From positions 288,001 through 352,000 of the forward strand of contig JAVZZH010000001.1 in NCBI GenBank assembly GCA_038885755.1: a stretch of DNA of 64,000 nt. The letters run 5' to 3'. A program made the translations under genes and the position numbers. The notes under the pieces were generated by a model. The model did no database searches. It saw only the letters and a program-made list of their open reading frames with translations, and had not been told where the DNA came from. Positions 7,781 through 41,921 of the stretch are shown piece after piece; the stretch's first letter is position 1, and every line of letters starts with the position of its first letter. The stretch is from Candidatus Caldarchaeum sp. (GTDB taxonomy: Archaea; Thermoproteota; Nitrososphaeria_A; Caldarchaeales; Caldarchaeaceae).

Positions 7781-7787
7781 GTTTTCC

Positions 7788-11154: not shown

Positions 11155-11202
11155 CCTTGTTGATGCGATAGTTTTTTATTAACGCCGTGAAAGCTAGCAA
11201 GC

Positions 11203-11808
11203 ATGAGGAAGTATACTCTTCCAAGCCTGCCGTATGCCTACAACGCTCTCGAACCCGTCATATCGGCTGAAATAATGACCCTGCATCACACGAAGCATCA
11301 TCAGGCCTACGTCAACGGAGCCAACGCGTGCCTAGAACGGTTGGAGAAGGCCCGGAAGGGCGAGAACCCCGAGAACATACGTGGAATACTGCGGGACCTC
11401 AGCTTCAACCTCAGCGGCCACAAGCTGCACGCCGTCTTCTGGCCCAACATGGCTCCACCCGGCAAGGGAGGGGGAAGGCCCGGCGGAAGCATCGCCGACC
11501 AGATCAACAAGGATTTCGGAGACTTCGAATCTTTCAAAAAGCAGTTCAGCGACGCCGCCAAGAACGTCGAGGCTGTTGGATGGGCTGTCCTCACCTACGA
11601 CGCGGAGTCAGACGCCCTAGTCATATACCAGGTTGAGAAGCAGAACTTCATGCATCCGCCTGAGCTGCCCCTACTTCTAACTCTGGACGTCTGGGAGCAC
11701 GCCTACTATCTACAGTACAAGAACGACCGAGCCTCTTACGTCGACAGCTGGTGGAACGTCGTCAACTGGGATGACGTTGACAGGAGGTTCTCGAAGGCGA
11801 AAGCCTAA
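11203..11808 (+). CDS. sod: Fe/Mn superoxide dismutase
   Basis: LPYAYNALEP, HHTKHHQAY, DVWEHAYY. Confidence 0.97.
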   Translation: MRKYTLPSLPYAYNALEPVISAEIMTLHHTKHHQAYVNGANACLERLEKARKGENPENIRGILRDLSFNLSGHKLHAVFWPNMAPPGKGGGRPGGSIADQINKDFGDFESFKKQFSDAAKNVEAVGWAVLTYDAESDALVIYQVEKQNFMHPPELPLLLTLDVWEHAYYLQYKNDRASYVDSWWNVVNWDDVDRRFSKAKA

Positions 11809-11810
11809 AC

Positions 11811-13007
11811 CTATTTCTTAACCAGCCGATGGCAGAACGCCATGGCTAGGACCGTGACGGCTGTGCACATGGCGACGAGGCTGGGCACTCCCCACACCTC
11901 TAAAACTATCCCCGAGACGAATGGGATTACTATGGACGAGCCCGCTGTCGCTGCGTCGGCGAAGCCTGTCAAACCTCCTCTCTCGCCGGGCGTCGTTAGG
12001 TCCGCTATGTAGGCCGAAGAAGACACCCATACCGCGCTCCAGCCGAGGCCGACGAGGAAAAGGGCTGTTGCGACGACCGGGAACAAGTCCGATGCGAGGA
12101 TCATGACGGTTCCAGCTCCCTCCAGACCTAGCCCCGTCGTCATCAGGGCGACACGTCCATACCTGTCCGAGAGCCTGCCAATAGGTATGGAGAAAGCATA
12201 CATTCCCAAGACGTGAATCATGACGACCGTGGATATCTCAACGGCGGTGTAGTGATGGCCGTACATGACCACGGTGTTGAGCGACATCACCGCAACCATG
12301 ACGCCCGTGGAGGCTGCTGCAGCAAGCACAGCCGTCATGATGGCCGGGTTAGCAGCCATCCGCAAACCGGTCGAACGGGCTTGGTCCGGGTTGCTGAGCT
12401 GTTTGGCCAGCTTCAGCGGTTCTGGCCACACCATCAAAGCCACGGCGGCTCCTGCGGCTGCTATGACTATCGCGTAGTTGAGGGAGTCGACGATGTTTGA
12501 TATGATTGAGGGGTTGAGCTGCGACGTGCTGTATATCAGCAACGGAGCTGTGAGTGTTCCTGCTATGCTGGCGGTCAGGAGCAAGCCTGTTCCAAACCCT
12601 CTCTTTTCGGGCGGAAGTAGGTCGGCCACGGCCACTCTTGTAAACTCGACCATCCCCCGGGCCACGCCGTACAGCATCAGGCTGCTCAGGAAGAGAACGA
12701 GCCTGTAGCTAGATAGAGCGAGAGCGGCGATGGACAGAGACACGGCCGCCAGAGCCATTCCACCTGCTATGACGGGCCTCCTGCCCACCCTGTCCATCAA
12801 CACCCCCATCTGTAAAGTGCTGACCAAACGCCCTCCCCACACGAAAGCCATCCCCAGTCCCGCCAGAGAGGGCGAGCCCCCTAGGAGGAGGATGGATATG
12901 GGGGCGTAAACTATGAGAACTTGGACTATGAGGGTGTTGAGCGCTTGAGCCGCCGCCAGAAGCCCTGTGTTCCTAGCTGTCGTCAGACGCAGGCCGGCTA
13001 TCCTCAA
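11811..13007 (-). CDS. MFS transporter
   Basis: About 12 hydrophobic segments; motif A GVLMDRVGRR and GRLSDRYGR. Confidence 0.9.
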   Translation of the reverse strand: MRIAGLRLTTARNTGLLAAAQALNTLIVQVLIVYAPISILLLGGSPSLAGLGMAFVWGGRLVSTLQMGVLMDRVGRRPVIAGGMALAAVSLSIAALALSSYRLVLFLSSLMLYGVARGMVEFTRVAVADLLPPEKRGFGTGLLLTASIAGTLTAPLLIYSTSQLNPSIISNIVDSLNYAIVIAAAGAAVALMVWPEPLKLAKQLSNPDQARSTGLRMAANPAIMTAVLAAAASTGVMVAVMSLNTVVMYGHHYTAVEISTVVMIHVLGMYAFSIPIGRLSDRYGRVALMTTGLGLEGAGTVMILASDLFPVVATALFLVGLGWSAVWVSSSAYIADLTTPGERGGLTGFADAATAGSSIVIPFVSGIVLEVWGVPSLVAMCTAVTVLAMAFCHRLVKK

Positions 13008-14061
13008 CCTTTCGTAAACCTCCGGCAGCCCTAGCCTTCCTCATATAAAATTGCATCGGACTCCTGACTCCACCGCACAGCCTTCCCTCCTCTATGCAGA
13101 GACCATGTGCTTGAATAGTTGCGCAGCGGGGAACGGAATACTTGGTCCTGCTGCCCTTGAGGCCTGCGATGTGCTCGACTTGGTAGCGTGCTATACGTGG
13201 GTCAAAGTCTCCTCTCTGAGAATACGCCGCCACCACCTCATCAACCCCCACGCCTATCTTCAGCATGAACGCGGCGAGGGTGAAGTTGGCGAAGTGGCTT
13301 ATCGGCTCTCCGGCCAGCAGCCGGGTTCTAAGGGCTTTCATGCATGGAGGCCAGTTTTCTGGCCCCAGCCTAACTGACGGAAGTTTGTCTGAGATGGTTA
13401 GGGACTCGAGGGCTTTTCTCAGACGGCTGACGTGTTCTTTCAGGAATTCGGGGGGCTCGACCTTGCCGACTTTGTCAAGCCTTTCGTAGACGAGCATCTC
13501 CAGCCCGTTCTTGACGAGTGTCATCGCCTCTGGTCTTGAAACGCCTACGTATCCTTTGTCGACAAGCCTGTTAACCAGCTTGAAACGCGGCTCGTTAAGG
13601 TTTACGGATATCTTCAGGTAGTCTGGAAAATGTATCCAGAATTCATGGGGATGCGTGCCTAGACGGACGTTCATCCCGAGAACTCTAGACATGACGTAGT
13701 GGATCACCTGCCTCTGCCCCTCCCGCACGTTCTTAATCATGCCGGCGTACCTTTCGGCTTCATAGGCTGCGAACCTTCTTTTTGCGACGGCGCTGTCGAG
13801 CATAGCCACCACGGCCATGGCGAGGGGGTGCGAAAGAATCTCCACATCCGACGGCAGGTCGGCTAAAGCCATCCTGCCCGGACTCTTAGACAACGCCTCC
13901 TCAACCCTCCTAACTGCCGTCTCGACCAGAACGTCAGCGTCGGCGAAGTCCTCAAGCCTCAGGTTGAGCGAGGCCACGTATCCCCTTATCTCCTTGAGGA
14001 ACGGGAACTTCGACAAGAACGCCTCGACAACGTATTCGTCCTCCGCCAACCCCTCCAACAA
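12973..14061 (-). CDS. priL: DNA primase large subunit
   Basis: KFPFL, FKLVNR.V..GYV, WPPCM, RYQVEHIAG, YSVPRC...GLC Fe-S domain. Confidence 0.92.
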   Translation of the reverse strand: MLEGLAEDEYVVEAFLSKFPFLKEIRGYVASLNLRLEDFADADVLVETAVRRVEEALSKSPGRMALADLPSDVEILSHPLAMAVVAMLDSAVAKRRFAAYEAERYAGMIKNVREGQRQVIHYVMSRVLGMNVRLGTHPHEFWIHFPDYLKISVNLNEPRFKLVNRLVDKGYVGVSRPEAMTLVKNGLEMLVYERLDKVGKVEPPEFLKEHVSRLRKALESLTISDKLPSVRLGPENWPPCMKALRTRLLAGEPISHFANFTLAAFMLKIGVGVDEVVAAYSQRGDFDPRIARYQVEHIAGLKGSRTKYSVPRCATIQAHGLCIEEGRLCGGVRSPMQFYMRKARAAGGLRKVEDSRPASDDS

Positions 14062-14088
14062 TACAACTAGATGAATAAATTCATACCC

Positions 14089-14541
14089 TTATGTAAGCCT
14101 GCTGGTGTCGAAGCCGTGGTGTTTTTTAAGCCACGACGCCTCATTAAGCAGGTCCAACCTGTCGAGCTTGTGTACAAGACGGGCCTCGGGCGAGCTGCGG
14201 CTCAGGTACTCGCTGTACAGCTCAGCGTACCGCTGCCTCAGACCGGGCGGCAGGCCTTGGATGAGCTGGTTTAAGACCGACTTCTCGACAACCTTCAGAA
14301 GCCTAGGCCTAATCTTCCTCTTCAAGGCGGGAGTCAGGTCTCCAAGGTAGCTCTCGGGAAGGTCGTGGATTAAAGCCATCTCGACGGCTTTCAATACGTC
14401 GAGGTTTCTCCTCGAGGCCTCAACCATAGCCAGCAAGGCTACTCCGTAGCTGTGGCTGGCGACTGTCTCAGCCCGTTTGACGCCCAGCTCAACCCATCCA
14501 GACCGGGGCAGTCTTTTGAGGATGGCGACCGCTGTCTTCAG
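14089..14541 (-). CDS. HD-domain phosphohydrolase (YfbR/HDDC2-like 5'-deoxynucleotidase); probable CTG start
   Basis: LK...R.GW, ETVASHS, HDLPE...GD, EARLV..LDRLD. Confidence 0.85.
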   Translation of the reverse strand: MKTAVAILKRLPRSGWVELGVKRAETVASHSYGVALLAMVEASRRNLDVLKAVEMALIHDLPESYLGDLTPALKRKIRPRLLKVVEKSVLNQLIQGLPPGLRQRYAELYSEYLSRSSPEARLVHKLDRLDLLNEASWLKKHHGFDTSRLT

Positions 14542-19599: not shown

Positions 19600-20013
19600 A
19601 TGGTTAGGGAGTTCACATACAAAGGCTACACAGTTGAACAGCTCATGTCCATGAGCATGGATGCTGTGATAAAGCTCCTGCCCAGCAGGGCTAGGAGAAG
19701 CCTCTACAAGAGAGGCCTCACTCCTGCGCAGTCCAAGCTGCTGGTCAAGGTGCGTAAGGCTAGGAAGCTTCTAGAGTCGGGGCAGAGGCTTGAGAAGCCG
19801 ATTAAGACACACTGCAGGGACATGATTATAATCCCCGAGATGATCGGGTTAACCATCCACGTTCACAACGGCAAGGAGTTTCAGCCCGTCGAGATCGTTC
19901 CCGAGATGCTTGGACACAGGCTCGGCGAATACGTAATCACTAACAAGAAGGTCGTCCACGGAAGAGCAGGAGTCGGCGCGACTAGGAGCAGCATGTACGT
20001 CCCGCTGAAATAG
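19600..20013 (+). CDS. rps19: 30S ribosomal protein uS19
   Basis: [44 protein letters not shown]. Confidence 0.98.
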
Positions 20014-20442
20014 CCTTACGCATCTACGTGTGTCAAGAGCTACGAGCTTCTGAAGCCAGCGACACTGTTCCTCCGTCAGAAGCTGTGAGTTTTGAGCGGA
20101 TAGACATCTAGCTTCTGCACGGCTAATAACAGCTGGGCTTGCAAAATACCGTCCCATGCCGTCGGCGGCGAAAGCATCCAATGAGATGGAACGAGTAATA
20201 AAAACCATCGACAGCGGTGCTCACAAAAGCTCTAAGAAGCTTGGCTCGGAGAAAGATAGGCTATCTCAACAAGGCTTCACACACCAAGTATAGCGCTCCT
20301 GCATGTGACCAGACATCAATTGAACGTTTTCAGAAATAAGCGGGCATACAAAACCAACAGGTTCAAGGCGTGTCGGGAAAGATGTATTTTAGAGAAAAAA
20401 GACTTAAATAAACTATGCACGTCGCGTCAGTTGATTTGATTC

Positions 20443-22758
20443 ATGAAAAGAGTTGAAGACATGCGGCTTCTCAAAGGCCTCGGTGTTTTTGTAGACGACC
20501 TAACGCTTCCTAAGATGCTTCACTGCGTATTTACCCGAAGCAGTTACGCTCACGCAAAGATTCTCAGAATAGATTATTCCGAAGCCCTCAAGACAGGGGG
20601 TGTAGTGGCGGTAATAGATGGAAGTTACGTAGCGTCGCGCTACAAACCGCTCAACACACTCATAAATGGAATTAATTACTATGGAATAGCCGTTGACAAA
20701 GTCCGCTACTTTGGAGAACCAGTGGCGATGGTGCTAGCCGATTCCGTCGAGACGGCATACGACGCCGCAGAAAAAATCTACGTAGATTATGACCCGCTTC
20801 CGGCGGTTGTTGAGCCTGAGAAGTCCGCGGCTTCGACGACCTTAGTCCATGAAAACGTTGGAACTAACCTTGTTCTTCACAGAAGCTTCAGATTCGGCGA
20901 TGTAGATAAAGCGTTTGAAGAAGCTCATACTGTTGTCTCGGAAAAATTCTATTTCGACCGGTACGCCGCCTCACCGGTAGAGACGTGCGGTGTTCTTGTC
21001 AACTATCTAAAGGATGGGTCTTTAACAGTTTACGACAACCAGCAGACACCGTATCTTTTTAGAAAAACCATAGCACGTTCCTTAGGCATCGACCCTGAGA
21101 AAGTTAGGTTTATCGAAAAAGACGCAGGCGGTGGTTTCGGCGTAAAGATCATGCTCTACCCATATGTTTTCTTACTCTGCCTCGCGTCCTTACACGTTCA
21201 AAGACCTGTAAAATGGTTCGAAACGAGGAGAGAGCATCTAACGTCTATGGCTCAAAACTCGAACAGAGTGACCTACGCCGAGATGGCCTTGGATAAAACC
21301 GGCCGAATCACCGGCTACAGGACGAAGTTTTACGAGGATTGTGGAGCGTTTGTCAGACTGCCCGACCCCGGAGGAGTCATAAGATCCTTGATGACCTATC
21401 AGGGATGTTATGATATCAGAAATATCGAGGTTGATTTGAATGTTGTAGTGACGAATAAATGTCCAACCGGGCCTGTCAGAGGCTATGGGTGCCCGCAGGC
21501 ATATTTTGTTCTGGAAAGGATGATGGATATCGCGGCGAAGCAGGTTGGGTTATCACCCTTTGAAATCCGTATCCGCAACATGGTGGATAAAAGCCAGCAA
21601 CCTTACCGAACGGTTTTCGGCAGCCTGTATGACGGCGGTGATTACAAAAACGTTCTGGAGAGAGCGTGGAAGCTTGCCGAGCCGGAGAAATTCGCTGGCG
21701 AACCTAACGTGGGTATCGGGATAGCGTGTGTTGTGGAGCCAGCTGTGACGAACCTGGCTCGAAATAAGCTTCTTTTCCCCGAGATTGAAGCATCGGGTTC
21801 AGGCGAGGGAGCGGTGGTCCGTCTCGAGGAATCGGGGAACATAACAGTCTACATAGCATCCATTCCCCAAGGTCAAGGGCACGAAACTGTCGCTACGCAG
21901 GTCGTCTGCGAAACTTTGAACGTTAAGCCCGAGCGGGTGAGAATTGTTTATGGTGATTCAGAAATGGTTTACCCCAGCCCGTATGGAGGGACATGGGCTA
22001 GCAGATTCAGCGTGATGACCACAGCTGCCGTGAAAAAAGCCTGTGAAACCCTGAAACGCAGCATACTCTCCGTCGCCTCCGAACTCCTCGAAGCATCTGA
22101 AAACGACCTGGAAATCCGCGACGGAGCAATCTACGTAAGAGGGTCTGAAGCCTCGATCTCGTTGGAACAGCTTGCCGCAAAAGCATACCGCGACAGTGTC
22201 AAAGCACGTAGCCGCGCCCCGCTGCAGGCTGAACATTTCTATGATTTCCCAACATTCAACACAGGCGTTGCAGGAGGTATCAACATGTCGGCCACCTACG
22301 GCAACTCAGCGCATGTTGCAATAGTAAGGGTAGACCCCGAAACCTTCAAACCAACAATACTACGGTATGTGGCGGTCCATGACTGCGGCAGGATCTTGAA
22401 CAAACAAATCGTCGACGGCCAGATATTCGGCGGAGTAGTGCAGGGGATTGGGGCAACGCTTTACGAAAGAATCGTTTACGATGAAAACGGACAGATTTTA
22501 ACATCGTCTTTCATCGACTACCTTTTGCCAACATCTGTTGAGACGCCGGAGGTCATAGTAGACCACTTAGAGACCCCGTCTTTGTTTTCTGAGCTTGGGT
22601 CGAAGGGTATGGGCGAGGGCCCCTTGATACCTGTATCTGCTTCGATAGCCAACGCAGTTGAAGATGCTTTGAAAACCCGAATAAACAACTCTCACATCTC
22701 GCCTCAACAGCTCTGGGAGACGATGAAAAATAATAAAAATAAGCTGCGAAAGAGTTGA
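20443..22758 (+). CDS. Xanthine dehydrogenase/CoxL-family molybdopterin hydroxylase, large subunit (not a true CODH)
   Basis: R.ED.RLL.G.G.FVDD, GGGFGVK, PVRGYG active-site loop, GQGHET, DCG.ILN..IVDGQI.GG..QG, KGMGE. Confidence 0.92.
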   Translation: MKRVEDMRLLKGLGVFVDDLTLPKMLHCVFTRSSYAHAKILRIDYSEALKTGGVVAVIDGSYVASRYKPLNTLINGINYYGIAVDKVRYFGEPVAMVLADSVETAYDAAEKIYVDYDPLPAVVEPEKSAASTTLVHENVGTNLVLHRSFRFGDVDKAFEEAHTVVSEKFYFDRYAASPVETCGVLVNYLKDGSLTVYDNQQTPYLFRKTIARSLGIDPEKVRFIEKDAGGGFGVKIMLYPYVFLLCLASLHVQRPVKWFETRREHLTSMAQNSNRVTYAEMALDKTGRITGYRTKFYEDCGAFVRLPDPGGVIRSLMTYQGCYDIRNIEVDLNVVVTNKCPTGPVRGYGCPQAYFVLERMMDIAAKQVGLSPFEIRIRNMVDKSQQPYRTVFGSLYDGGDYKNVLERAWKLAEPEKFAGEPNVGIGIACVVEPAVTNLARNKLLFPEIEASGSGEGAVVRLEESGNITVYIASIPQGQGHETVATQVVCETLNVKPERVRIVYGDSEMVYPSPYGGTWASRFSVMTTAAVKKACETLKRSILSVASELLEASENDLEIRDGAIYVRGSEASISLEQLAAKAYRDSVKARSRAPLQAEHFYDFPTFNTGVAGGINMSATYGNSAHVAIVRVDPETFKPTILRYVAVHDCGRILNKQIVDGQIFGGVVQGIGATLYERIVYDENGQILTSSFIDYLLPTSVETPEVIVDHLETPSLFSELGSKGMGEGPLIPVSASIANAVEDALKTRINNSHISPQQLWETMKNNKNKLRKS

Positions 22759-22764
22759 TGAGAA

Positions 22765-23949
22765 ATGAAAACCGTTCTGATCAAAAACATAGGTAAAATA
22801 GTTTCGGGAAAAATAGCTAAGCCAATAGTCGACGGCGACAGCATATACATCAGCAACGGCGTCGTAGAGGAAGTTGGATACAACATTTCACGCCAGGCTG
22901 ACGGGGTCTTCGACGTCAACGGCATGACAGTCATTCCAGGACTGTTTGATTCCCATGTTCACCCGGTTTTCGGAGATTTCACACCCAGGCAAAACACTCT
23001 CGGGTTCATAGAATCGTCTGTCAACGGAGGCGTGACAACATTCATCTCAGCCGGTGAAGTGCATTTGCCCGGCAGGCCTCGCGGCGATAAGGATGCGGCG
23101 AAGGCGTTGGCAATTTTAGCCCACAAAACATTCAAAAACCTTCGGCCTCTCGGCGCGAAGATTCACGCCGGAGCTTTGCTGCTTGAGAAAGGACTGGTTG
23201 AGGCTGATTTTGAAGAAGTGGTGAGGGCCGGTGTTTGGTTGGTTGGCGAGGTTGGTCTCGGAAGCGTCCAGGACCCAGATGAGGCGGCGGCTCTGGTGAG
23301 AATAGCCCAGAAACACGGCATGAAAGTGGTTATCCACACAGGAGGAGCATCGATTCCAGGCAGCACGATCATCAACGCGGAAGTAGTCCTGAAGGTAAAG
23401 CCGAACGTCGTGTCGCACATCAACGGAGGGCCCACATCACCATCGTTGACAGACATCCGAAGAATAATCGAGAACACAGAATCAGCCATCGAAGTCGTGC
23501 AGTGCGGCAACTTCAAATCCATGGTCGAAACAGTCAAGATACTCCATTCACGCAACGAGCTGAACAGGCTGATAATAGGAAACGACGCGCCATCGGGAAC
23601 CGGCGTAGTCCCGCTCGGAATAATCCGGACTGTATCTTTCATCGCATCCAACACGTCAGTTGAGGCGGAGAAAGTTGTCTGCGCAGCCACCGGCAACACT
23701 GCCAAAGTCTTCGGCTTAAAGGAAGGCGTTATCGAACCAGGAAAACCCGCAGACCTCATAGTCGTGGACACGCCCTACGGCTCGACCGGCAGAGACGCTC
23801 TCGAAGCATTTTCCGTCGGCGACATTCCCGGCATAGCTATGGTGATGGTCGACGGCGTTCCACGTGTAGGCCGCAGTAGGATGACTCCCCCTCCAACGAA
23901 ACATATAAAAACTGAAGGAGAAGCGAAACTCCCCGAAGGCGGTCATTAA
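22765..23949 (+). CDS. Enamidase-like amidohydrolase
   Basis: IKNIGKIVSG, DSHVH, PRQ.T..FI, H.PGRP, HTGG.SIPGS, SHINGGPT, GNDAPSGTG..PLG, GDIPGI, SR.TPP; closely follows my recollection of Eubacterium barkeri Ena over its full length. Confidence 0.88.
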   Translation: MKTVLIKNIGKIVSGKIAKPIVDGDSIYISNGVVEEVGYNISRQADGVFDVNGMTVIPGLFDSHVHPVFGDFTPRQNTLGFIESSVNGGVTTFISAGEVHLPGRPRGDKDAAKALAILAHKTFKNLRPLGAKIHAGALLLEKGLVEADFEEVVRAGVWLVGEVGLGSVQDPDEAAALVRIAQKHGMKVVIHTGGASIPGSTIINAEVVLKVKPNVVSHINGGPTSPSLTDIRRIIENTESAIEVVQCGNFKSMVETVKILHSRNELNRLIIGNDAPSGTGVVPLGIIRTVSFIASNTSVEAEKVVCAATGNTAKVFGLKEGVIEPGKPADLIVVDTPYGSTGRDALEAFSVGDIPGIAMVMVDGVPRVGRSRMTPPPTKHIKTEGEAKLPEGGH

Positions 23950-23950
23950 A

Positions 23951-24931
23951 ATGAAGCTAGGCCTCCGGTTGCCAACATTCACACGCACGGGTGATTTTTC
24001 ATCAGGCGAAGCCTTGAAAAACTATGTTGCTGAGGCTGAGCAACTCGGCGTCCAGGGATTCTTCGTCATCGACCATTTGCTTACATCGCGGCCGGCTTAT
24101 TCAACTAGCTGGCACGACCCGTTGATTGCCCTGTCCTTCGTCGCGGCGGCGACAAAGAACGCCGTTGTAGGTCCCATGGTGATGGTGCTGCCTCTCAGAA
24201 GTCCCTATCTTGTCGCAAAACAGACAGCTTCTTTGGATGTTTACTCTGGAGGAAGATTTGTGCTTGGAGCGGGCGTGGGATGGAACGTCGACGAATTCAA
24301 ACTGCTTAACGTTCCGCTGGAAAAAAGAGGAGTTATAATGGACGAATACCTTGCCCTTCTCAAAAAGCTCTGGACCGATGACAAAGTCACGTTCGAGGGA
24401 AAACATTTCAACGTGAAAGACCTAGTCCTCGAGCCCAAGCCTGTTCAGAAACCACATCCCCCTATATGGATAGGTGGCGGCAGCCAGCCGCATGAAATTC
24501 TCTACGGTGCTGCCGCGAAGGGAATCGATAAAGTTCTTCTACGCATAGCCAAGTTTGCGGATGGATGGATACCGCATTCAAGCTCAACGCCCGAGATGTC
24601 GGCTCAGGACTGGGAGAAAGTGAAGAAATATGCAGAGGAGCTCGGACGCGACCCCTACCGAATAACAAAAGTCTATTCAAACTTTGTCTACATCCGTAGC
24701 CCGGGAGAGGATGACAACGAAGCCGTGAAACGTTTTTCACTCTACTCAGGTATGAACCTCGAATACTGGAGAAACTACTACCTCTACGGCACTGCTGACG
24801 AGCTTGCGGTGAAGATCAAGAAACGCATCGAATCGCTTGAGGGCGTTGACTGGGTCGTGCTAAACCCCGTGACGTTTGAAAGAACGCAGCTTCTCAGAAT
24901 CACGCAAGACCTCTATCCTCGCGTCAGCTAA
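23951..24931 (+). CDS. LLM-class (luciferase-like) flavin/F420-dependent oxidoreductase
   Basis: DH motif, LD..SGGR..LG.G.GW...EF, PKPVQKPHPPIWIGG, ADGW. Confidence 0.92.
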   Translation: MKLGLRLPTFTRTGDFSSGEALKNYVAEAEQLGVQGFFVIDHLLTSRPAYSTSWHDPLIALSFVAAATKNAVVGPMVMVLPLRSPYLVAKQTASLDVYSGGRFVLGAGVGWNVDEFKLLNVPLEKRGVIMDEYLALLKKLWTDDKVTFEGKHFNVKDLVLEPKPVQKPHPPIWIGGGSQPHEILYGAAAKGIDKVLLRIAKFADGWIPHSSSTPEMSAQDWEKVKKYAEELGRDPYRITKVYSNFVYIRSPGEDDNEAVKRFSLYSGMNLEYWRNYYLYGTADELAVKIKKRIESLEGVDWVVLNPVTFERTQLLRITQDLYPRVS

Positions 24932-24969
24932 ACAAAACTATAAAAGCCTCTATATTTGCTGGAAAAACC

Positions 24970-26184
24970 ATGAAAAGGTCAGTCGTCATTGCTATCGTTG
25001 CCGTGGTCGTGGTCGTTGCAGCTTCGTCTGGTGTGTTCCTGTTTCTCTCACAGCAGAGCCTTGGAGTATCTGAGGTGAAGATCGGAGCTCTCGTTCCTTT
25101 GACAGGTCCTTTCGCCATCTACGGCGACTACACAATTTACGGGATGAGGTTTGCTGTCGATGAACTGAACGCCAAGGGAGGTGTTCTTGGGGCGAAGGTC
25201 GTTCTCATCGAGGCTGACGAAAAAAACGACGCGAAGGAAGCTGTTGCGATATTCAAAAGGATGGCGGAGATTGACCGCGTAACCGCCGTTGTGGGTACAA
25301 TTTCGAGCGGGATCGGCGCAGTCTTGACGGCTGAGGCGGAGCAGGCGAAGGTTCCGCTTTTCCTCATAGCAGCCGGATCACACACAATCCTGACCAAGGA
25401 TTCCCGCTACACGTTCAGAACCTGTCTACCGCCTGCTCCAACTAACGGCGAGCTCCTAGCCAACTTTGTCCGCGACAAAGGCTACAAGAGAGTCGGCGTA
25501 GTCATAGCTAGTTATGAATGGGGTTTTGCCATCAAGGAAGTTTTGGAGAAACGGCTGAAGGATATTCCGGGAGTACAGTTTCAGATTGAGGAAGCTCCTC
25601 TAGGTGAGACTGACTTTACAACCGTTCTTCGGAAGCTTCAGCCCCTCAATCCAGAGGTCATGATACTGACCGGGCATCCGCCGGGATTCCCCGTTATCAC
25701 CAAGCAAGCCATTGAACTTGGTTTCCAATCAGAGTACTACATTGCTTCAGTTCAGCCGCCTGAACTCATGCTCAGAGGTGTTGGAGAAATAGGCCTCAAC
25801 AAGCTTGTCACAACCACGTGCGTGAACTTAGAAGCACCCCAGTACCGTGAGCTGGCGGAGAAATTCTACCAGAAATACGGCAAATACTTTGACCATAACG
25901 CGGTATCCGGATACGTCACCGTGTTGTTGATCGCCGACGCTGTGGAGAAGACAAGGTCAACAGACCCCGCAGTTGTTGCCAACTACATCCGTACACACGA
26001 GTTCAACCATCCCGTATTCGCATGGCCGTTGTCCTACACCGAGTGGGGCGAGATAAAGAAGCCGTCGATGCGTCTCGCTGTGATTAAGAGCGGAAACCCA
26101 GGCCCGGTCAACCCGGGAGCGAACTGGCTGGTTGAAAACCTGTATACATCGCCGCCGGTCGAGCCTTACGTTCCAGCCAAATAA
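24970..26184 (+). CDS. ABC transporter substrate-binding protein (LivK/HAAT type)
   Basis: N-terminal TM anchor, KIGALVPLTGP, NAKGGVLG. Confidence 0.92.
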   Translation: MKRSVVIAIVAVVVVVAASSGVFLFLSQQSLGVSEVKIGALVPLTGPFAIYGDYTIYGMRFAVDELNAKGGVLGAKVVLIEADEKNDAKEAVAIFKRMAEIDRVTAVVGTISSGIGAVLTAEAEQAKVPLFLIAAGSHTILTKDSRYTFRTCLPPAPTNGELLANFVRDKGYKRVGVVIASYEWGFAIKEVLEKRLKDIPGVQFQIEEAPLGETDFTTVLRKLQPLNPEVMILTGHPPGFPVITKQAIELGFQSEYYIASVQPPELMLRGVGEIGLNKLVTTTCVNLEAPQYRELAEKFYQKYGKYFDHNAVSGYVTVLLIADAVEKTRSTDPAVVANYIRTHEFNHPVFAWPLSYTEWGEIKKPSMRLAVIKSGNPGPVNPGANWLVENLYTSPPVEPYVPAK

Positions 26185-26243
26185 CATATTTTTATATTTC
26201 TTTTCCTGACGAGAAGACGGTTGATAACGGTTTGGGATCTATA

Positions 26244-26981
26244 ATGCTAAACTGTATTGACGTGACTATGTTTTTCGGCGGTCTACCGGCCCTGAGGAAC
26301 GTCAACCTCCAAGTTGAGGAGGGTGAGATCAGGGCTGTCATCGGCCCTAACGGAGCTGGTAAAACAACGCTGTTTAACGTGATAAACGGAGTCTACAAGC
26401 CTTCTTCAGGCAAGATTCTGCTCGATGGTGTTGACATAACTAGAAAACCTCCATACGTGGTTTTTAAGCTCGGTGTTGGAAGAACTCTCCAGATTCCAAG
26501 GCCTTTCAAGGATTTGACGGTTTGGGAGAACGTTCTGGCAGGCGGGCTGTTCAGCGGCCGTATGTCGATGGATGAGCTGGAAAACCATGTTTCAACGCTC
26601 TTAGACAGACTCGGTTTATCCAGTAAAGCAAACCTCAAAGCAGCTGTTCTGAACCTTCAGGAAAGGAAGAAAGTAGAGCTGGCGAGAGCCTTGGCGTCGA
26701 AGCCAAAGGTTTTGATGGTGGATGAATACATGAGCGGCCTCAACACCGCCGAAATAGAGGATGCCGTAGAGCTCTTCAGAGAACTGAGGAAAACCTACAA
26801 CCTTACGATCATCTGGGTCGAACACGTGATCAGCGCGGTGTCATCCCTCGCCGACAAGGTTTCAGTCCTAAACCAAGGGGTAAAGATAGCTGAGGGAAAG
26901 CCTGAAGAAATAGTCGCCGACGAAGAGGTAATTGAAGCTTACTTGGGTGAGAGAATTGTCCAGCCTTCTAAAAGTGGATAA
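26244..26981 (+). CDS. ABC ATPase (LivG-like)
   Basis: FGGL.AL, GPNGAGKTT, ELARALA, EH, EAYLG. Confidence 0.93.
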   Translation: MLNCIDVTMFFGGLPALRNVNLQVEEGEIRAVIGPNGAGKTTLFNVINGVYKPSSGKILLDGVDITRKPPYVVFKLGVGRTLQIPRPFKDLTVWENVLAGGLFSGRMSMDELENHVSTLLDRLGLSSKANLKAAVLNLQERKKVELARALASKPKVLMVDEYMSGLNTAEIEDAVELFRELRKTYNLTIIWVEHVISAVSSLADKVSVLNQGVKIAEGKPEEIVADEEVIEAYLGERIVQPSKSG

Positions 26982-27675
26982 CCTCGCAGCAGCATACGGC
27001 GACATTCAAATTCTCTGGGATGTTTCGATAAACGTAAACAAGGGAGAAGTGGTCGTCGTTTTGGGCCCCAACGGTGCCGGCAAAACAACCCTTCTCAAAA
27101 CTATTGCAGGCTTGTTGAAACCCAAAAAAGGTTCAGTGACCCTTGATGGTAAACGAATAGACGGCCTGCCGCCTGAAAAGGTTGTCGGAGAAGGCGTGGC
27201 ATTGGCACTCGCTGAGAAAGAACTCTTTCCCCAGATGACTGTAAAGGAAAACCTGCTTCTCGGAGCCTTCCACGCTAGGGCGAGGAAAAAAGTTCATGAA
27301 AACCTCGAGCTTGTCTACAGCATCTTTCCAAAACTCAAAGAAAGAGAGTTTCAAAAAGCGGGGACCATGAGCGGTGGCGAACAGCAGATGCTGGCCATCG
27401 GCAGAGCTTTGATGACGGATGCTAAGCTTTTGCTTCTGGACGAGCCTTCCACAGGACTTGCTCCACTACTCGTCAAAAACATTTTCACAGGACTGAGGAG
27501 AATAATGGAGAACAAGAAAGAGCTGTCGATACTTCTAGTCGAACAACGAACGGTGCAGGCGGCGGAGCTGTGCGACAGGGGATACATACTCACGAACGGC
27601 CGCATAGTGTTCGACGGCGACATACGAGAAGGGCTGTCGAAACAGGCTTTCGTCAGAAAGTATCTGGGGATGTAG
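26956..27675 (+). CDS. ABC ATPase (LivF-like)
   Basis: GPNGAGKTT, MSGGEQQMLAIGRALM, DEPSTGLAP. Confidence 0.94.
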   Translation: MSSLLKVDNLAAAYGDIQILWDVSINVNKGEVVVVLGPNGAGKTTLLKTIAGLLKPKKGSVTLDGKRIDGLPPEKVVGEGVALALAEKELFPQMTVKENLLLGAFHARARKKVHENLELVYSIFPKLKEREFQKAGTMSGGEQQMLAIGRALMTDAKLLLLDEPSTGLAPLLVKNIFTGLRRIMENKKELSILLVEQRTVQAAELCDRGYILTNGRIVFDGDIREGLSKQAFVRKYLGM

Positions 27676-27677
27676 AT

Positions 27678-28550
27678 ATGGACTCTAGTTTCCTTTTATT
27701 CGTTATAGATGGAGTGGTTTTTGGCTTGATTCTTTCGCTGATAGCCGCAGGCTTGACTTTGATATACGGCCTAGCCGGCGTGCTTAACCTTGCACACGGC
27801 GAGCTGCTGGTTGTATGCACAGTAACCTCGGCTGTCTTGATGCAGACATTTGGTTTTCCGCTATCGCTGGCTTTAGTAGCTGGCCTAGCCGTCACAGCAG
27901 GTGCAGCCGCCTTCCTCGACAAGATCGTTCTACAGCCCGTTTACAGGCTTGAAGGTGAGGAAAGAGTTCTTCTAGGCCTCTACTTGACGCTCGCTTTCTC
28001 AATCTTCCTCCACAGCTCTATCATAACAACTTTCCCCCTCGCGTTCCTCACGATCAACCTGCCGATAGCAACAATCAACTTCATGGAGTTGAAGCTTCGG
28101 CTGGCTCAGTTGGTGACCGGCGTGTCTTCAGCGGCCATCCTAGTGGGAGTTTACTTTTTCCTCAGGAGAACTTGGAGCGGTATGGCGATACGTTCCCTCA
28201 CTCAAAATGAAACAGGTGCGTTGATGGTCGGAGTAAGCGTCAAGAAATATCGTTTGCTGGTTTTCATGCTGGGAGCTTTTCTCGTCGGCCTTGCTGGGAT
28301 AATACGTAGCATCATAGCAACGGTTGCGCCGGAAAGCGGAATAGAGTTCACAATCCTAGGACTGCTTGTCTGCGTGGTGGGCGGGATTCGCAGCGTCTAC
28401 GGAGTGATTATCGCCGGCCTAGTCATAGGAATAGCCTATACTTTCCTCGTCTTCTTCATAGGTACTTACCTTGCCTACGTAGCTCTTTTGATCCTCATCA
28501 TAGCCATCATAATTGTTCGTCCCTACGGTATCGTGGGTGAGAAATGGTGA
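27678..28550 (+). CDS. ABC permease (LivH-like)
   Basis: GLTLIYG...VLNLAHGE, VVGG, RPYG. Confidence 0.92.
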   Translation: MDSSFLLFVIDGVVFGLILSLIAAGLTLIYGLAGVLNLAHGELLVVCTVTSAVLMQTFGFPLSLALVAGLAVTAGAAAFLDKIVLQPVYRLEGEERVLLGLYLTLAFSIFLHSSIITTFPLAFLTINLPIATINFMELKLRLAQLVTGVSSAAILVGVYFFLRRTWSGMAIRSLTQNETGALMVGVSVKKYRLLVFMLGAFLVGLAGIIRSIIATVAPESGIEFTILGLLVCVVGGIRSVYGVIIAGLVIGIAYTFLVFFIGTYLAYVALLILIIAIIIVRPYGIVGEKW

Positions 28551-29503
28551 GAGAGAGGGTAAAACTTAACGCTGTCATAGCACTGATACTTATTTACACA
28601 GCGTTGCCGCTACTGTTCATCAACACGCCCTACATCGTCTTCATATTAGTTCAGATGGTTTTCTTCACGGTTTTCGCCTACGGGTTTAACTTTCTGTTCG
28701 GGTTTACACGGCAGCTCTTCCTATGTATAGGGGCCTTCATCGGGGTTGGTGCATACATTACGGGGATATCTCTCCGAGACGGTTTGATGGGGCCTGTTGA
28801 GGCCATTCTAGTTTCCACACTGGTGGTCGCCTTCGTCGGATGGGCTGTCAGCATAATATCTATCCGTCGCAGGCTTGTCGTTATCTTCACAGGAATCTTC
28901 ACCCTAGCTATCACGCTTGTCTTCAACAACCTTGTAATAGGCCTCGCTAGCCTAACAGGCGGCGAGACGGGTTTCAGAATACGTGGAATAAGCCTAGGGC
29001 CTCTTGACTTGCTACCATACAACCTACGTTTCTACTATCTTGCCGCGGCCACGCTGCTGGCGGTGACTGTAGCATCCTACTACCTGCTTTTCCACACAAA
29101 AACAGGATACGCGTACCGCTGTATCATAGATGATGAAAACAGCGCCGAACTTGTCGGAATAAACGTCTCGAGGGTTAAAAGTCTAACAGCCCTGTTTTCA
29201 TCAGCGCTTCTGGGGCTGGCGGGAGCTCTTTACGGGCTGTTCTCGCAGCTCATCGCGCCCTCGTATTTCGCTTTTTCATCGGTCGACATTCCTGTCCAGC
29301 TTATCGTCATCCTAGGCGGAAGAACCACCCTGCTAGGTCCGTACATAGGCTCGGCCATCATCTCTATCGTAAACGAGGCCTTGAAATTTCTCGGGCCTTT
29401 GACGCAGGTCCTCTACGGTTTGACGCTGATGTTCCTTCTCGCGTTCTTCCGGAACGGGATAGTCGACTTCGTAAAGAGAAGATGGGTTAAATGGTTCTTT
29501 TAA
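28544..29503 (+). CDS. ABC permease (LivM-like)
   Basis: Multi-TM; LTGGETG, DENSAE.VGIN, ILGG..T..GP..G. Confidence 0.9.
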   Translation: MVRERVKLNAVIALILIYTALPLLFINTPYIVFILVQMVFFTVFAYGFNFLFGFTRQLFLCIGAFIGVGAYITGISLRDGLMGPVEAILVSTLVVAFVGWAVSIISIRRRLVVIFTGIFTLAITLVFNNLVIGLASLTGGETGFRIRGISLGPLDLLPYNLRFYYLAAATLLAVTVASYYLLFHTKTGYAYRCIIDDENSAELVGINVSRVKSLTALFSSALLGLAGALYGLFSQLIAPSYFAFSSVDIPVQLIVILGGRTTLLGPYIGSAIISIVNEALKFLGPLTQVLYGLTLMFLLAFFRNGIVDFVKRRWVKWFF

Positions 29504-30105
29504 CGCAGCCCGTCCTCTCCCCGGACCTCCTCTTTCCTCAAGCCGCCGATTCTAGGCAACGGTCTTCCAGAGTCCGACAACGCGGCTATGACCACTATCT
29601 CATCAGGTAGCGGGGCGTCCGGAACTCTTACCTCCATGCTGTCGTAATGTGAGCGGACAAAGGCGGCTCTTTTGTAGTGTAGCGGTACGTCGATAGCCGT
29701 CCCGGGATAGCCTATTTTAACCGATGAGGGGATTATTGCCTTGCACACGTCCGCACCGCCGCATTCCTCTCGGAAACCCTTTCCAAACTTGGGATGGAGA
29801 ATCGCGTGTCCGTGCTCAAGCTCGCCCATCATGCCGATGATCGCTGCCTTGCCATAGTTCTCGGTCGAGTCAGGAGTTATGGCTAACGCTTCACGGGCTT
29901 TCTTCGCAAGGTAGCCTCCCAGAAATTCTCCAGCCTCAATTAACATAGATAGATCTTCGACATATCTGCCGGCAAAAGGGTTCTTTATGACGGCTGCCGC
30001 GGCACTTCTTCTGACTGGTTTGCCTAGCTCGTTTCCCATCTCCACAAATGTTTCGTCGGTCGCTACGACAACTTTCCGTAGAATAACTCCGCCAGCTATT
30101 TTCAT
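29500..30105 (-). CDS. AA_synth (DUF1185) family protein
   Basis: AAVIKNPFAGR, YGKAAI.G..GELEH, VPL.YK.....RSHYD, DAPLPDEIV, GRP.PR. Confidence 0.88.
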   Translation of the reverse strand: MKIAGGVILRKVVVATDETFVEMGNELGKPVRRSAAAAVIKNPFAGRYVEDLSMLIEAGEFLGGYLAKKAREALAITPDSTENYGKAAIIGMMGELEHGHAILHPKFGKGFREECGGADVCKAIIPSSVKIGYPGTAIDVPLHYKRAAFVRSHYDSMEVRVPDAPLPDEIVVIAALSDSGRPLPRIGGLRKEEVRGEDGLR

Positions 30106-30106
30106 T

Positions 30107-31549
30107 TCACCACCACCTCGTAGTTATTATCTTATGATCTGTGAAAAACCTTATCGTGTCGACCCTGCTGTGAGCGTTTCCAAAGAAAGACTGCTTCCTC
30201 CCGCCCAGCGGGAAGTATGCCATTGGTTGGGGAACACCTATGTTCACGCCTACATTGCCGACGTTGACGTTTAAACAGAATTCTCTTGCAGCCCGCGGGT
30301 CTGATGTGAAGATTGAGGCAGCGTTGCCGAAAGGCGTGTTGTTGTTTATGAGGTCGATGGCTTCGCCGAGGCTGTCTACTCTGAGAATGGTCGCAACGGG
30401 GCCAAAGATTTCTTCTTTCGCTAGGGGCGAGTCGGGTGGAAGGTCTTTGAAGATTGTTGGGCCGACGAAGTATCCTTGAAGACCTTTGAGCTGGCTATGG
30501 AGCCGGCCGTCCAGCATAGGTTTCGCATACTGTTCACCTATTTCTATGTATCTCCTGACCCTCTCCACTCCCTGGCGTGAAGCCATCGGACCCATCTCCG
30601 TCTCCTTGTCCATGCCGTATCCCAGCCTCAGGTTTGACTTGGATAAAACCATGTCCACAACCCTCTCAGCTCCTTTCAAAACAACTAGGTTGGAACCGGC
30701 TAGACATCTCTGGCCCGTCATTCCAAAGAACGAGGAAACAGCCGCATCAGCGGTTTTAGACAATTCGGCGTCAGGCGCCACCACAATATGGTTTTTCGCT
30801 CCGGCGTTAATTGATGCTCTCTTACCCTCCTTAGCCACCATCTCGTAGAGCAGTTTACCAGTCTTGGTCGAGCCTATGAAGCCCACCCCCTGGATTCCGT
30901 TATGCTTGACCAGTTTCTCGGCCACGCGTCCGTCTCCATGGACTATGGACATGACTCCAGGCGGAACGCCTGCTTCTCTGACTATGCGGGCAACCTCGTC
31001 ATAAACAAGGGGTGTGACCTCGCTTGGCTTAAGAACGACAGTGCATCCAAGAGCGATAGCGTAGGGAACGTAAGAGGACCATGCGTGGAGCGGGATGTTG
31101 AAGGGAGTTATTACAGCAAAACATCCCAACGGCTCCCGGATCAGTTCCTGGTCTATGTCTGGTGAGATGTTGACCATTTTCTCGCCTTTTGCAAGCGTAT
31201 AAGCAAGCGCGGCAGCCGATTCTACGTTTTCAATGCTTCTCTTAACCTCTCCCACTCCCTCGGCGTAGGTCCTTCCATGGTTCTCGACCAAAACGCGTGC
31301 AAGCAGGTCTGTGTCGCGTTCCAGCAGGCTTCTCAATCGCATGAGATAACCTACCCTTTCCGACGGAGTCGTCTTCCTGTATTTTTCAAATGCTCTGAGA
31401 CCAGACTCGACAGCTCTGTCAACGTCTTCTGAAGTACTCGCCGGCACGTATGCGATTACTGAGTCGAAGGCAGGATTATACACTGGAATCGTCTCGACAG
31501 ACTTTGATGGGACGAATTCGTTGTCGACGAAGTTCTGCAGAATCTTCAT
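30107..31549 (-). CDS. CoA-acylating (methyl)malonate-semialdehyde dehydrogenase family aldehyde dehydrogenase
   Basis: TPFN, KPSE, FIGST, GAKNH, GQRCLA, EEIFGPV, VGVNIGVP.P.AYFP.GG. Confidence 0.88.
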   Translation of the reverse strand: MKILQNFVDNEFVPSKSVETIPVYNPAFDSVIAYVPASTSEDVDRAVESGLRAFEKYRKTTPSERVGYLMRLRSLLERDTDLLARVLVENHGRTYAEGVGEVKRSIENVESAAALAYTLAKGEKMVNISPDIDQELIREPLGCFAVITPFNIPLHAWSSYVPYAIALGCTVVLKPSEVTPLVYDEVARIVREAGVPPGVMSIVHGDGRVAEKLVKHNGIQGVGFIGSTKTGKLLYEMVAKEGKRASINAGAKNHIVVAPDAELSKTADAAVSSFFGMTGQRCLAGSNLVVLKGAERVVDMVLSKSNLRLGYGMDKETEMGPMASRQGVERVRRYIEIGEQYAKPMLDGRLHSQLKGLQGYFVGPTIFKDLPPDSPLAKEEIFGPVATILRVDSLGEAIDLINNNTPFGNAASIFTSDPRAAREFCLNVNVGNVGVNIGVPQPMAYFPLGGRKQSFFGNAHSRVDTIRFFTDHKIITTRWW

Positions 31550-31722
31550 GCCTTTATGCTCAGATGGGAGTTTTTAAATCTGATGCTTCTAGGACGTCTT
31601 TGCAATGAAAGGGGCCTTAGCCGTTGAAAGAAGCACTAGCCTAGTGTAGCCATTAATTTGTGGGATGAGTTTCAAGGGAATCCATCTCTTAAATCAGCGG
31701 AGACACACGCTAGAGTAAAATG

Positions 31723-31807
31723 TGCGGGGGGTGGGATTTGAACCCACGAACCCCTTCGGGACAGGGTCCTAAGCCCTGCGCCGTTGACCAGGCTTGGCAA
31801 CCCCCGC
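31723..31807 (-). tRNA. tRNA-Leu(TAG)
   Basis: Minus strand: acceptor GCGGGGG/CCCCCGC, anticodon arm CAGGG-CT-TAG-GA-CCCTG, long variable arm, T-loop TTCAAAT. Confidence 0.96.
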
Positions 31808-41820: not shown

Positions 41821-41921
41821 GCCCTGGTAGCTCAGCCTGGTGGAGCGACCGCTTGGTAAGCGGTAGAGCCCGTGGCGAACACGGGGCGCCGACGTCCGGG
41901 GTTCAAAGCCCCGCCAGGGCT
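41821..41921 (+). tRNA. tRNA-Thr(GGT) with 27-nt intron (41867-41893) at position 45/46
   Basis: Acceptor GCCCTGG/CCAGGGC, anticodon arm ACCGC-TT-GGT-AA-GCGGT; removing 41867-41893 restores variable loop AGGTC. Confidence 0.92.

Follow-up and report, generated by a model that had tools for sequence, protein, structure and literature searches.

The block of ten genes at 20443-31549 of the 64,000-nucleotide stretch of Candidatus Caldarchaeum (Nitrososphaerota, formerly Aigarchaeota) DNA analysed here (the window) is read, with a probability of about 0.58, as a cassette for the catabolism of nicotinate or 6-hydroxynicotinate. The substrate would be degraded by the route through 6-oxo-1,4,5,6-tetrahydronicotinate (THON) of Eubacterium barkeri and Azorhizobium, with two redox components that are no orthologues of the bacterial ones. 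The genes encode a probable enamidase (Ena), the large subunit of a molybdenum (Mo) hydroxylase, a luciferase-like oxidoreductase (LLM), a five-gene Liv-type ABC importer, a DUF1185 protein and an aldehyde dehydrogenase (ALDH) of the methylmalonate-semialdehyde dehydrogenase (MMSDH) type. The broader assignment, catabolism of some N-heterocycle, is held with high confidence, and the narrower choice of nicotinate or 6-hydroxynicotinate as substrate is favored to a lesser degree. Judged by sequence, the Ena-DUF1185-ALDH core is as in bacteria; neither the reductase nor the Mo enzyme is orthologous to its bacterial counterpart, and archaea are a new host domain. All ten open reading frames (ORFs) named in a preliminary description of the window were found at their coordinates, and their domains were confirmed by Pfam and NCBIfam. 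Each computational test made here favors the interpretation given in that description. The source genome comprises 1.33 Mb in 10 contigs, with a completeness of 86.5% and a GC content of 0.547.

An enamidase orthologue in Caldarchaeum

In a search of all PDB sequences, residues 3-379 of Ena matched the E. barkeri enamidase 2VUN with an E-value of 5.1e-124 and 417 bits, the second-best match being a dihydroorotase at 9e-9 and 38 bits. A hand count of the alignment with 2VUN gave approximately 195 identities over 377 positions (~52%). The Ena of a Comamonadaceae plasmid, encoded in a cluster (L017) with an annotated 6-hydroxynicotinate reductase, scored 376 bits against 2VUN, so the archaeal protein is at least as close to the characterised enzyme as the proteobacterial one. 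Residues H64, H66, E162, H191, H218 and D274, which are the usual metal-ligand positions of the amidohydrolase superfamily, were invariant in an alignment of 12 diverse family members. These positions fall within blocks that are identical to 2VUN. The Ena family is large, with 7981 of 8000 scored candidates at E 1e-20 or better; among the 120 best relatives listed, archaeal-type Ena were 64-91% identical and bacterial ones at most 59%. Several of the listed relatives carry the automatic label 'enamidase', one of them from 'archaeon HR01'.

The preliminary description had taken the amidohydrolase for an enamidase. The wide gap between 2VUN and the next PDB match agrees with this, as does a phylogenetic tree (below) in which the protein falls inside a clade with an SH-aLRT support of 96 that it shares with Ena from clusters carrying the reductase Hnr; both search and tree thus place it within the enamidases. 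It is very likely an enamidase orthologue and, by this orthology, would hydrolyse THON to 2-formylglutarate and ammonia.

LLM and Hnr in Ena clusters

The step from 6-hydroxynicotinate to THON is the Hnr step of bacterial clusters. LLM and Hnr were scored in 101 loci (80 from metagenomes, 9 from genomes, 6 from plasmids, 4 own-genus loci negative for Hnr, and 2 others), with a tally of 18 LLM-only, 56 Hnr-only, 21 with neither (mostly short contigs) and none with both. The metagenomic loci contributed 9 LLM-only, 54 Hnr-only and 17 with neither, again mostly on short contigs and never with both; all nine genome loci were LLM-only, and the plasmid loci were Hnr-only in two cases and had neither in four.

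Ena phylogeny was obtained from a quick maximum-likelihood run of IQ-TREE on 78 distinct rows (88 near-full-length sequences with 10 duplicates merged; rows with coverage below 93% were dropped, and the E. barkeri Ena was not among the rows). All 16 LLM-linked Ena rows, together with two rows whose contigs are too short to show partner genes, formed one clade (SH-aLRT 95), and all 43 Hnr-linked rows were positioned outside it. The SH-aLRT 96 clade, which includes 75 rows, holds all Hnr-linked Ena as well as the LLM-linked subclade. Members of the LLM-linked clade belong to the Caldarchaeales, to a group of four loci (L026 and L028-L030) and to locus L027, whose Ena is clustered at 90% together with a protein labelled 'Candidatus Bathyarchaeia archaeon' and in which a 2Fe-2S gene adjoins the LLM gene.

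Searches of the source genome by tblastn gave no match to Hnr, UPF0280 or ferredoxin reductase. A metagenomic Hnr probe found nothing in five Caldarchaeum genomes (the source genome and four sisters, two of them 99% complete), a weak negative given that this search had no positive control; a similar probe recovered Hnr in 54 metagenomic loci by BLAST. The LLM gave no match among plasmids at 1e-40.

The LLM gene starts 1 nt beyond the Ena stop codon, and its product scores 203.9 bits on TIGR03619 (F420-dependent LLM), over the cut-off of 166.9. Hydride transfer onto an electron-poor ring is the chemistry of known F420 hydride transferases, and we know of no TIGR03619 or F420 LLM member that reduces 6-hydroxynicotinate. 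The distribution of the two genes suggests that the LLM probably fills the Hnr step. It would pass a hydride, probably from F420H2, to 6-hydroxynicotinate to yield THON, and would do the job of the iron-sulfur flavoprotein Hnr and its UPF0280 companion, with F420H2 regenerated by the NADPH:F420 oxidoreductase of the genome.

The UPF0280 gene itself accompanies Hnr (in L017, in the Sulfitobacter plasmid cluster L018 and in 26 of the 48 metagenomic loci that span 8 kb or more) and vanishes with it in LLM-type clusters; UPF0280 may be a maturation or accessory factor of Hnr.

Aldehyde dehydrogenase and DUF1185

The ten best PDB matches of the ALDH are all MMSDHs (5TJR at 7e-99). GAKN at 250 and GQRC at 279-282 align with the gaknh and gercma motifs of 5TJR and 1T90. 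GAKN replacing the general-base ELGG, together with an Arg preceding the catalytic Cys, is the CoA-acylating signature; K252, N253, R281 and C282 are invariant in 22 cluster-linked ALDHs. Among bacterial Ena loci that span 8 kb or more, 18 hold homologues of 36-45% identity. Since 2-formylglutarate is a 2-substituted 3-oxopropanoate like methylmalonate semialdehyde, the established MMSDH chemistry would yield glutaryl-CoA and CO2, and by this analogy glutaryl-CoA is the likely product of the ALDH. Generic acyl-CoA dehydrogenases would process it further.

DUF1185 matches PDB entry 2QTP at 1e-59. Its gene is adjacent to that of the ALDH in 11/11 archaeal loci and in 4 of the 16 bacterial loci that have both. 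We infer that DUF1185 is a helper of the ALDH step, or a handler of 2-formylglutarate or the enamine intermediate; the MMSDH-type ALDH, aided somehow by DUF1185, would thus turn 2-formylglutarate into glutaryl-CoA and CO2. In PMC7913881, the DUF1185 homologue TgnF is described as stimulating the aldehyde dehydrogenase TgnE in trigonelline degradation. A complex prediction for ALDH and DUF1185 from 22-row alignments scored 0.00, which is evidence neither way.

Related clusters in archaea and bacteria

A neighbourhood survey, which the preliminary description had proposed, showed the genes for the Mo large subunit, Ena and LLM to be adjacent in 9/9 related genome loci, in which Ena is 74-91% identical to the protein of the window; an arrangement kept in this way is not due to chance. 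The DUF1185-ALDH pair was found in 7/9 of these loci, and the contigs of the remaining two end short of it. The five ABC genes are in line in five related loci; in L013 the binding protein is relocated upstream, and L012 has no ABC genes, its DUF1185-ALDH pair lying directly behind the three enzyme genes. Because the ABC genes vary in this manner, the enzymes rather than the transporter form the constant core.

Ena was found in 14/17 other genomes of the window's family in a set of 76 genomes of the class, in 1/19 genomes of a second family and in 0/39 of two others (1/58 across the three sister families). An even sample of the phylum gave Ena in 17/401 genomes, of which only two lay outside the family, at 74% and 44% identity. 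A second Ena-like gene of 39-41% identity is present in six sister genomes and absent from the source genome. In one of the sisters it belongs to a second cluster (L110, G011:C1:360000-379500, ~2900-14500) with two LLMs, one on either side of a 445-aa amidohydrolase, a Mo large subunit, an ECF-type transporter (CbiQ and two ATPases) and a UbiD-family decarboxylase. This cluster probably serves another pathway, for an N-heterocycle or an aromatic acid.

A protein-level search of plasmids with Ena returned 25 records of 38-49% identity, of which six were inspected. L017 has genes for a Mo oxidoreductase and a 2Fe-2S protein, for a Liv-type ABC system, for UPF0280, ferredoxin-NADP reductase, TetR and Ena, and for Hnr, annotated there as 6-hydroxynicotinate reductase; DUF1185 is present in two copies. 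L018 carries that gene set too, with beta-oxidation genes in addition; in place of an annotated Hnr it has a 'hypothetical protein' that is read here as Hnr-like. The archaeal Ena is 49% identical to that of L017 and 47% to that of L018, and the archaeal DUF1185 is 55% and 52% identical, respectively, to one of the two copies. PMC3511419 describes an Azorhizobium/Bradyrhizobium cluster that covers the first three steps of nicotinate degradation and includes a presumed ABC transporter for nicotinate along with two unknowns that are conserved; the gene set of L017 and L018 matches this cluster and is on that account tied to nicotinate.

A profile scan of metagenomes yielded 547 Ena-encoding stretches, of which the best 80 were retained. 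Among the 48 of these loci that span at least 8 kb, a Mo large subunit was found in 42, DUF1185 in 39, Hnr in 38-39 (two probes), 2Fe-2S and FAD subunits in 33 each, UPF0280 in 26, an ALDH homologue in 24 and LLM in 6. The grouping of genes put forward in the preliminary description is therefore borne out, since bacterial nicotinate-type clusters also hold DUF1185, a Liv-type ABC system, a Mo hydroxylase and often an MMSDH-like ALDH.

DUF1185 and Ena-like genes also occur together in clusters that have neither Hnr nor LLM. The Thermomicrobium roseum megaplasmid (L015) has the order Mo subunit, DUF1185, Ena-like gene, beside a Rieske dioxygenase, and in Agrobacterium vitis pAt (L014) DUF1185 and an Ena-like gene adjoin an FAD monooxygenase. 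The Rieske dioxygenase comes with SDR and enoyl-CoA hydratases, the FAD monooxygenase with DUF4286. Ena and DUF1185 seem to form a ring-opening module that can be reused. Haloarcula and Prescottella Ena-like genes have neither partner nearby.

Substrate, Mo hydroxylase and alternative readings

A number of findings weigh against the reading as a nicotinate cassette. The best PDB matches of the Mo large subunit are CoxL (8UEM, 1e-113), quinoline 2-oxidoreductase (1T3Q, 2e-107) and KdhL (7DQX, 2e-105), the last being 6-hydroxypseudooxynicotine dehydrogenase; a Sulfolobus oxidoreductase (4ZOH) is also close. E. barkeri NdhL (3HRD) reaches only 3e-46, compared with 1e-113 for CoxL. By these matches the subunit belongs to the CoxL/Qor/Kdh branch and is no orthologue of the nicotinate dehydrogenases of bacteria; its identity to the counterpart in L018 is 26%. 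The binding protein, at 26% identity to that of L017 and 24% to that of L018, is likewise not orthologous to its counterparts. None of the ten genes encodes an iron-sulfur or FAD subunit, so that the Mo large subunit stands alone, and it is one of 11 large-subunit paralogues in the source genome, in which the four small-subunit (Fer2_2) loci all lie outside the cluster. Ena-like genes of 38-45% identity were found in other ring-degradation contexts, with a Rieske dioxygenase or an FAD monooxygenase, from which it follows that the wider Ena family acts on more than one substrate. At the end of the route, the best NCBIfam model of the ALDH, the CoA-acylating MMSDH model TIGR01722, scores 414.9 bits, just below its cut-off of 448.5, and a specific glutaryl-CoA dehydrogenase was not assignable in the source genome, where two generic acyl-CoA dehydrogenases fall far under all cut-offs. 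The predicted structure of the LLM (pLDDT 88.9) matches F420- and FMN-dependent enzymes alike (TM 0.71-0.82), which are not separable by fold, and many bacterial LLM relatives exist at ~50% identity. Finally, Fo synthase (CofG/CofH) was found in 0/5 Caldarchaeum genomes, two of them 99% complete.

Several of these points suit a cluster of the same architecture with another substrate, a related N-heterocycle such as a pyridine carboxylate, 2-pyridone or lactam that the Mo enzyme would hydroxylate and whose matching cyclic enamide Ena would open. The branch of the Mo subunit contains quinoline and nicotine-pathway hydroxylases and lies outside the known nicotinate dehydrogenase branch; the non-orthologous binding protein, the separate clade of LLM-linked Ena, the other ring-degradation contexts of Ena-like proteins and the similarly designed second cluster with a UbiD decarboxylase in sister genomes all fit this alternative as well. 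Against it, the archaeal Ena is nearer to the E. barkeri enzyme than is the Ena of a proteobacterial nicotinate cluster (417 vs 376 bits), and DUF1185 (52-55%) and the MMSDH-type ALDH (36-45%) are the companions found in Hnr-containing clusters and therefore point to an identical ring-opened product. A different substrate is accordingly rated as unlikely, though as the most serious competitor of nicotinate, and the caution of the preliminary description that the true substrate might be a related N-heterocycle still stands.

Under the nicotinate reading, the Mo large subunit would hydroxylate nicotinate to 6-hydroxynicotinate with iron-sulfur and FAD subunits encoded elsewhere, and the Liv-type ABC system would import the substrate. 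The best PDB match of the binding protein is 3TD9 (2.5e-25), and its N-terminus forms a hydrophobic anchor. A pair of genes for a beta (FAD) and a gamma (2Fe-2S) subunit lies at C1:514566-515991 of the source genome (L109:4566-5991), on the minus strand beside aEF-2 and without a large subunit. The pair and the large subunit of the cluster score best on the same NCBIfam set (glyceraldehyde dehydrogenase subunits), and the pair would be the partner of that subunit; electron-transfer subunits may be common to several large subunits. An identity of the Mo subunit as CO dehydrogenase was rejected for want of an AYRCSFR or AYRGAGR loop.

A second alternative takes the LLM for something other than a ring reductase. 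It could act once the ring is open, for instance by reducing 2-formylglutarate to 2-(hydroxymethyl)glutarate with F420 in a role like that of E. barkeri Hgd, or it could be an FMN-dependent ring monooxygenase; another enzyme would then reduce 6-hydroxynicotinate, or the imported compound would already be reduced. Among the solved relatives of the LLM are F420-dependent alcohol dehydrogenases as well as RutA, an FMN-dependent enzyme that cleaves the uracil ring, and the fold favors none of them; the PDB sequence matches of the LLM are weak and mixed, and the missing Fo synthase points the same way. The LLM and Hnr, with its UPF0280 companion, strictly exclude each other (no locus holds both); this and the single clade of LLM-linked Ena argue for the reductase role instead. 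In addition, the cluster has no further conserved reductase, a reductase of the aldehyde would draw on the same substrate as the conserved ALDH, and a flavin reductase partner was not found among the cluster genes. This alternative is considered distinctly improbable.

As to the cofactor of the proposed LLM reductase, CofD and CofE are present in the source genome, the only one searched for them, and npdG/Fno (NADPH:F420 oxidoreductase) scored over cut-off in 5/5 Caldarchaeum genomes (G000, the source genome, and the sisters G005, G007, G010 and G011). With CofD, CofE and Fno present and CofG/CofH not found, the use of F420 is plausible and its supply unexplained, which suggests Fo scavenging or a novel Fo synthase in Caldarchaeum. 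The preliminary description had inferred a complete route. This proved too strong, as the Mo large subunit has no iron-sulfur or FAD partner in the cluster. Mutual exclusion with Hnr is the single observation from which the LLM is taken to be the ring reductase.

The remaining alternative, that the right half of the block (Liv-type ABC, DUF1185 and MMSDH-like ALDH) serves branched-chain amino-acid uptake and valine catabolism, unrelated to the adjoining Mo/amidohydrolase/LLM operon, draws on the ABC components and the ALDH scoring best on Liv and MMSDH models and on a DUF1185 structure paper that inferred a function in the metabolism of amino acids from adjacent transporters of the branched-chain amino-acid type (PMC2954203), but it is very improbable given that DUF1185 accompanies Ena in 39/48 and the ALDH in 24/48 loci that span 8 kb or more and come from distantly related bacteria and archaea, that L012 keeps the DUF1185-ALDH pair without ABC genes, and that the entire block moves as a single piece.

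Cluster layout and genomic context

The genes of the run on the plus strand (20443-29503) are separated by intergenic gaps of 1-47 nt or otherwise overlap (Table 1). Plus- and minus-strand genes are convergent, with a 4-nt overlap between the last permease gene and the DUF1185 gene, which lies 1 nt behind the ALDH gene on the minus strand. The block is preceded by the ribosomal row L3-L4-L23-L2-S19, with S19 last, and followed by tRNA-Leu(UAG), a PUA protein and an Mrp/NUBPL ATPase. A DNA contig of 11763 nt from a public run spans 19987-31749 with 0 mismatches, so the arrangement is no misassembly of this record alone.

Table 1 Features of the inserted block and its borders in the window
Feature	Position	Strand	Basis
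Ribosomal protein S19 gene, left border of block	19600..20013	+	Pfam Ribosomal_S19
Inserted block with entire catabolic cluster, 11,706 bp	20017..31722	.	Empty-site joint, GC, alignment to relatives
Mo hydroxylase large (MoCo) subunit	20443..22758	+	Pfam Ald_Xan_dh_C + MoCoBD_1 + MoCoBD_2
Probable enamidase orthologue	22765..23949	+	Amidohydro_1/3; 2VUN E 5.1e-124
LLM oxidoreductase	23951..24931	+	Bac_luciferase; TIGR03619 203.9 bits
Liv/Urt-type (HAAT) substrate-binding protein	24970..26184	+	Peripla_BP_6
ABC ATPase, LivG-like	26232..26981	+	ABC_tran + BCA_ABC_TP_C; NF008449 209 bits, under cut-off
ABC ATPase, LivF-like, start codon uncertain (ORF overlaps preceding gene)	26932..27675	+	ABC_tran; NF008626 237 bits, under cut-off
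ABC permease, start codon uncertain	27570..28550	+	BPD_transp_2
ABC permease	28544..29503	+	BPD_transp_2
DUF1185 (AA_synth) protein	29500..30105	-	PF06684 227 bits
MMSDH-type ALDH	30107..31549	-	Aldedh; TIGR01722 414.9 bits, under cut-off
tRNA-Leu(UAG), 3' end abuts inserted block	31722..31807	-	ARAGORN, Rfam

The cassette is relocatable and sits here exactly between S19 and the 3' end of tRNA-Leu. Its GC content is 0.508 compared with 0.56 in both flanks, and GC3 is 0.53-0.60 compared with 0.61-0.73 in the flanking genes. The stretch 20490-31581 aligns as a single piece to loci L005 and L006 at 80.6% nucleotide identity, with unrelated flanks. Ena was beside S19 in 0/5 relatives checked. In a contig of sequencing run X7, from a related strain (13 mismatches over 297 nt), the 11,706 bp are missing and 20016 is joined to 31723 by way of two additional letters. 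This joint, seen in a single contig with a 30-nt side, is a moderate hint of an empty site where S19 and the 3' end of tRNA-Leu adjoin. In the sister genome G007 (L100, G007:C5:58000-66000), S19 and Mrp are 2.3 kb apart, genes for S-adenosylmethionine decarboxylase and spermidine synthase lie between S19 and tRNA-Leu, and Ena is on a different contig. The interval from S19 to tRNA-Leu thus shows three states: the 11.7-kb cluster here, the two polyamine genes in G007, and empty in the X7 strain.

A classical integrase-borne island is unsupported: the ten genes contain no integrase domain, no bounding direct repeats were found, and no convincing ORF is present in 20014-20445 or at the junctions. 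Adjacency of the cluster to a tRNA was seen in 0 of the other 9 cluster-bearing loci scanned, with one doubtful tRNA call in L010; L100 served as control for the empty site.

The nearest relatives differ from gene to gene. Ena, LLM and the ABC genes are 87-92% identical to those of L005 and L006, where the Mo subunit, DUF1185 and ALDH are 75-77% identical. In L013, from a genome of another family, DUF1185 and ALDH are 89% and 86% identical, and Ena and LLM 74% and 71%. This mosaic suggests recombination between cassettes. The flanking S19 and Mrp are 81% and 75% identical to those of the nearest sister genome.

Contigs of X7, a metatranscriptomic library, match Ena (22749-22986 and 23366-23620), the binding protein (25434-26177) and ALDH (30214-30882) with 0 mismatches. 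They give a weak hint of transcription of the cluster, and only a weak one because such libraries can contain DNA. No X7 contig lies over the Mo gene (20184-22639) or 26938-29393, an absence of cover that proves nothing. Two further observations concern tRNA genes of the window. A 101-nt tRNA at 41821-41921 was called by Rfam and missed by ARAGORN; it presumably carries an intron, as is usual for archaea. At 31783/31784, inside the tRNA-Leu match, high-depth contigs of runs X1 and X8 have 31 extra letters; these contigs probably stem from tRNA-Leu genes with an intron that belong to other organisms, more abundant in the same samples.

Significance

Catabolic routes for nicotinate are established for bacteria and for one fungus, and an archaeal case would be the first. 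In the abstract of PMC5746545, nicotinate degradation is said to have been elucidated in bacteria alone until 2017. The preliminary description knew of no archaeal version, and none was found in the literature searched: titles and abstract openings of papers on 'enamidase' show nothing on archaea, the titles and abstracts retrieved for 'Aigarchaeota' paired with 'nicotinate' contain neither term, and the word 'archaea' is absent from a 2022 comparison of nicotinate pathways and from a 2023 review. The automatic labels 'enamidase' and 'F420-dependent LLM' already exist in public records.

The full proposal, to be taken as tentative and at somewhat under even odds, is that the LLM is a new F420H2-dependent 6-hydroxynicotinate (2-pyridone) reductase that displaced Hnr once, in a cluster lineage present today in Caldarchaeales and Bathyarchaeia, within the first archaeal nicotinate catabolic pathway, carried on an 11.7-kb travelling cassette, and that every THON-route cluster, bacterial or archaeal, depends on DUF1185 as a partner for the step at the ring-opened aldehyde. 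If true, the LLM would be an enzyme of a new kind, a thermophile's pyridone ring reductase linked to F420 that could be useful for N-heterocycle biocatalysis, and hot-spring Caldarchaeum could draw carbon and nitrogen from scavenged vitamin B3 or pyridines as well. Speculatively, NAD broken down by heat might supply such compounds in hot springs. DUF1185, for which two structures and no function are available, is placed in THON-route ring-degradation clusters, usually near an MMSDH-type ALDH.

Comparison with known systems

The LLM has its fold in common with the F420-dependent luciferase-like hydride transferases (TIGR03619, with Mer, Adf and FGD as solved relatives), and its family score is over cut-off. 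The TgnE/TgnF pair of the Acinetobacter baylyi trigonelline pathway resembles the archaeal ALDH and DUF1185 in that an aldehyde dehydrogenase and a DUF1185 protein come together at the close of a route for degrading a pyridine carboxylate. TgnE is described as a succinate semialdehyde dehydrogenase (PMC7913881), whereas the archaeal ALDH bears the CoA-acylating signature of MMSDH.

Clusters of the Azorhizobium/Bradyrhizobium type, represented by L017 and L018, share with the archaeal cluster Ena, DUF1185, a Liv-type ABC system, a Mo hydroxylase and a path toward glutarate or glutaryl-CoA. They differ in that the archaeal LLM would replace Hnr, UPF0280 and ferredoxin-NADP reductase, that the archaeal cluster has one DUF1185 gene and the proteobacterial ones two, and that the archaeal Mo large subunit (26% identical) lacks adjacent iron-sulfur and FAD subunits.

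The nicotinate fermentation cluster of E. barkeri, reportedly described by Alhapel and colleagues in 2006 as comprising Ndh, Hnr, Ena, Hgd and later genes, shares the enamidase (~52% identity) and the logic of Mo-dependent hydroxylation, ring reduction and hydrolytic ring opening. Its downstream part is the reductive Hgd/mutase branch. In contrast, the archaeal cluster has no Hnr homologue, its Mo subunit comes from a different branch, an oxidative and apparently CoA-acylating ALDH stands in place of the Hgd/mutase branch, and the host is an archaeon.

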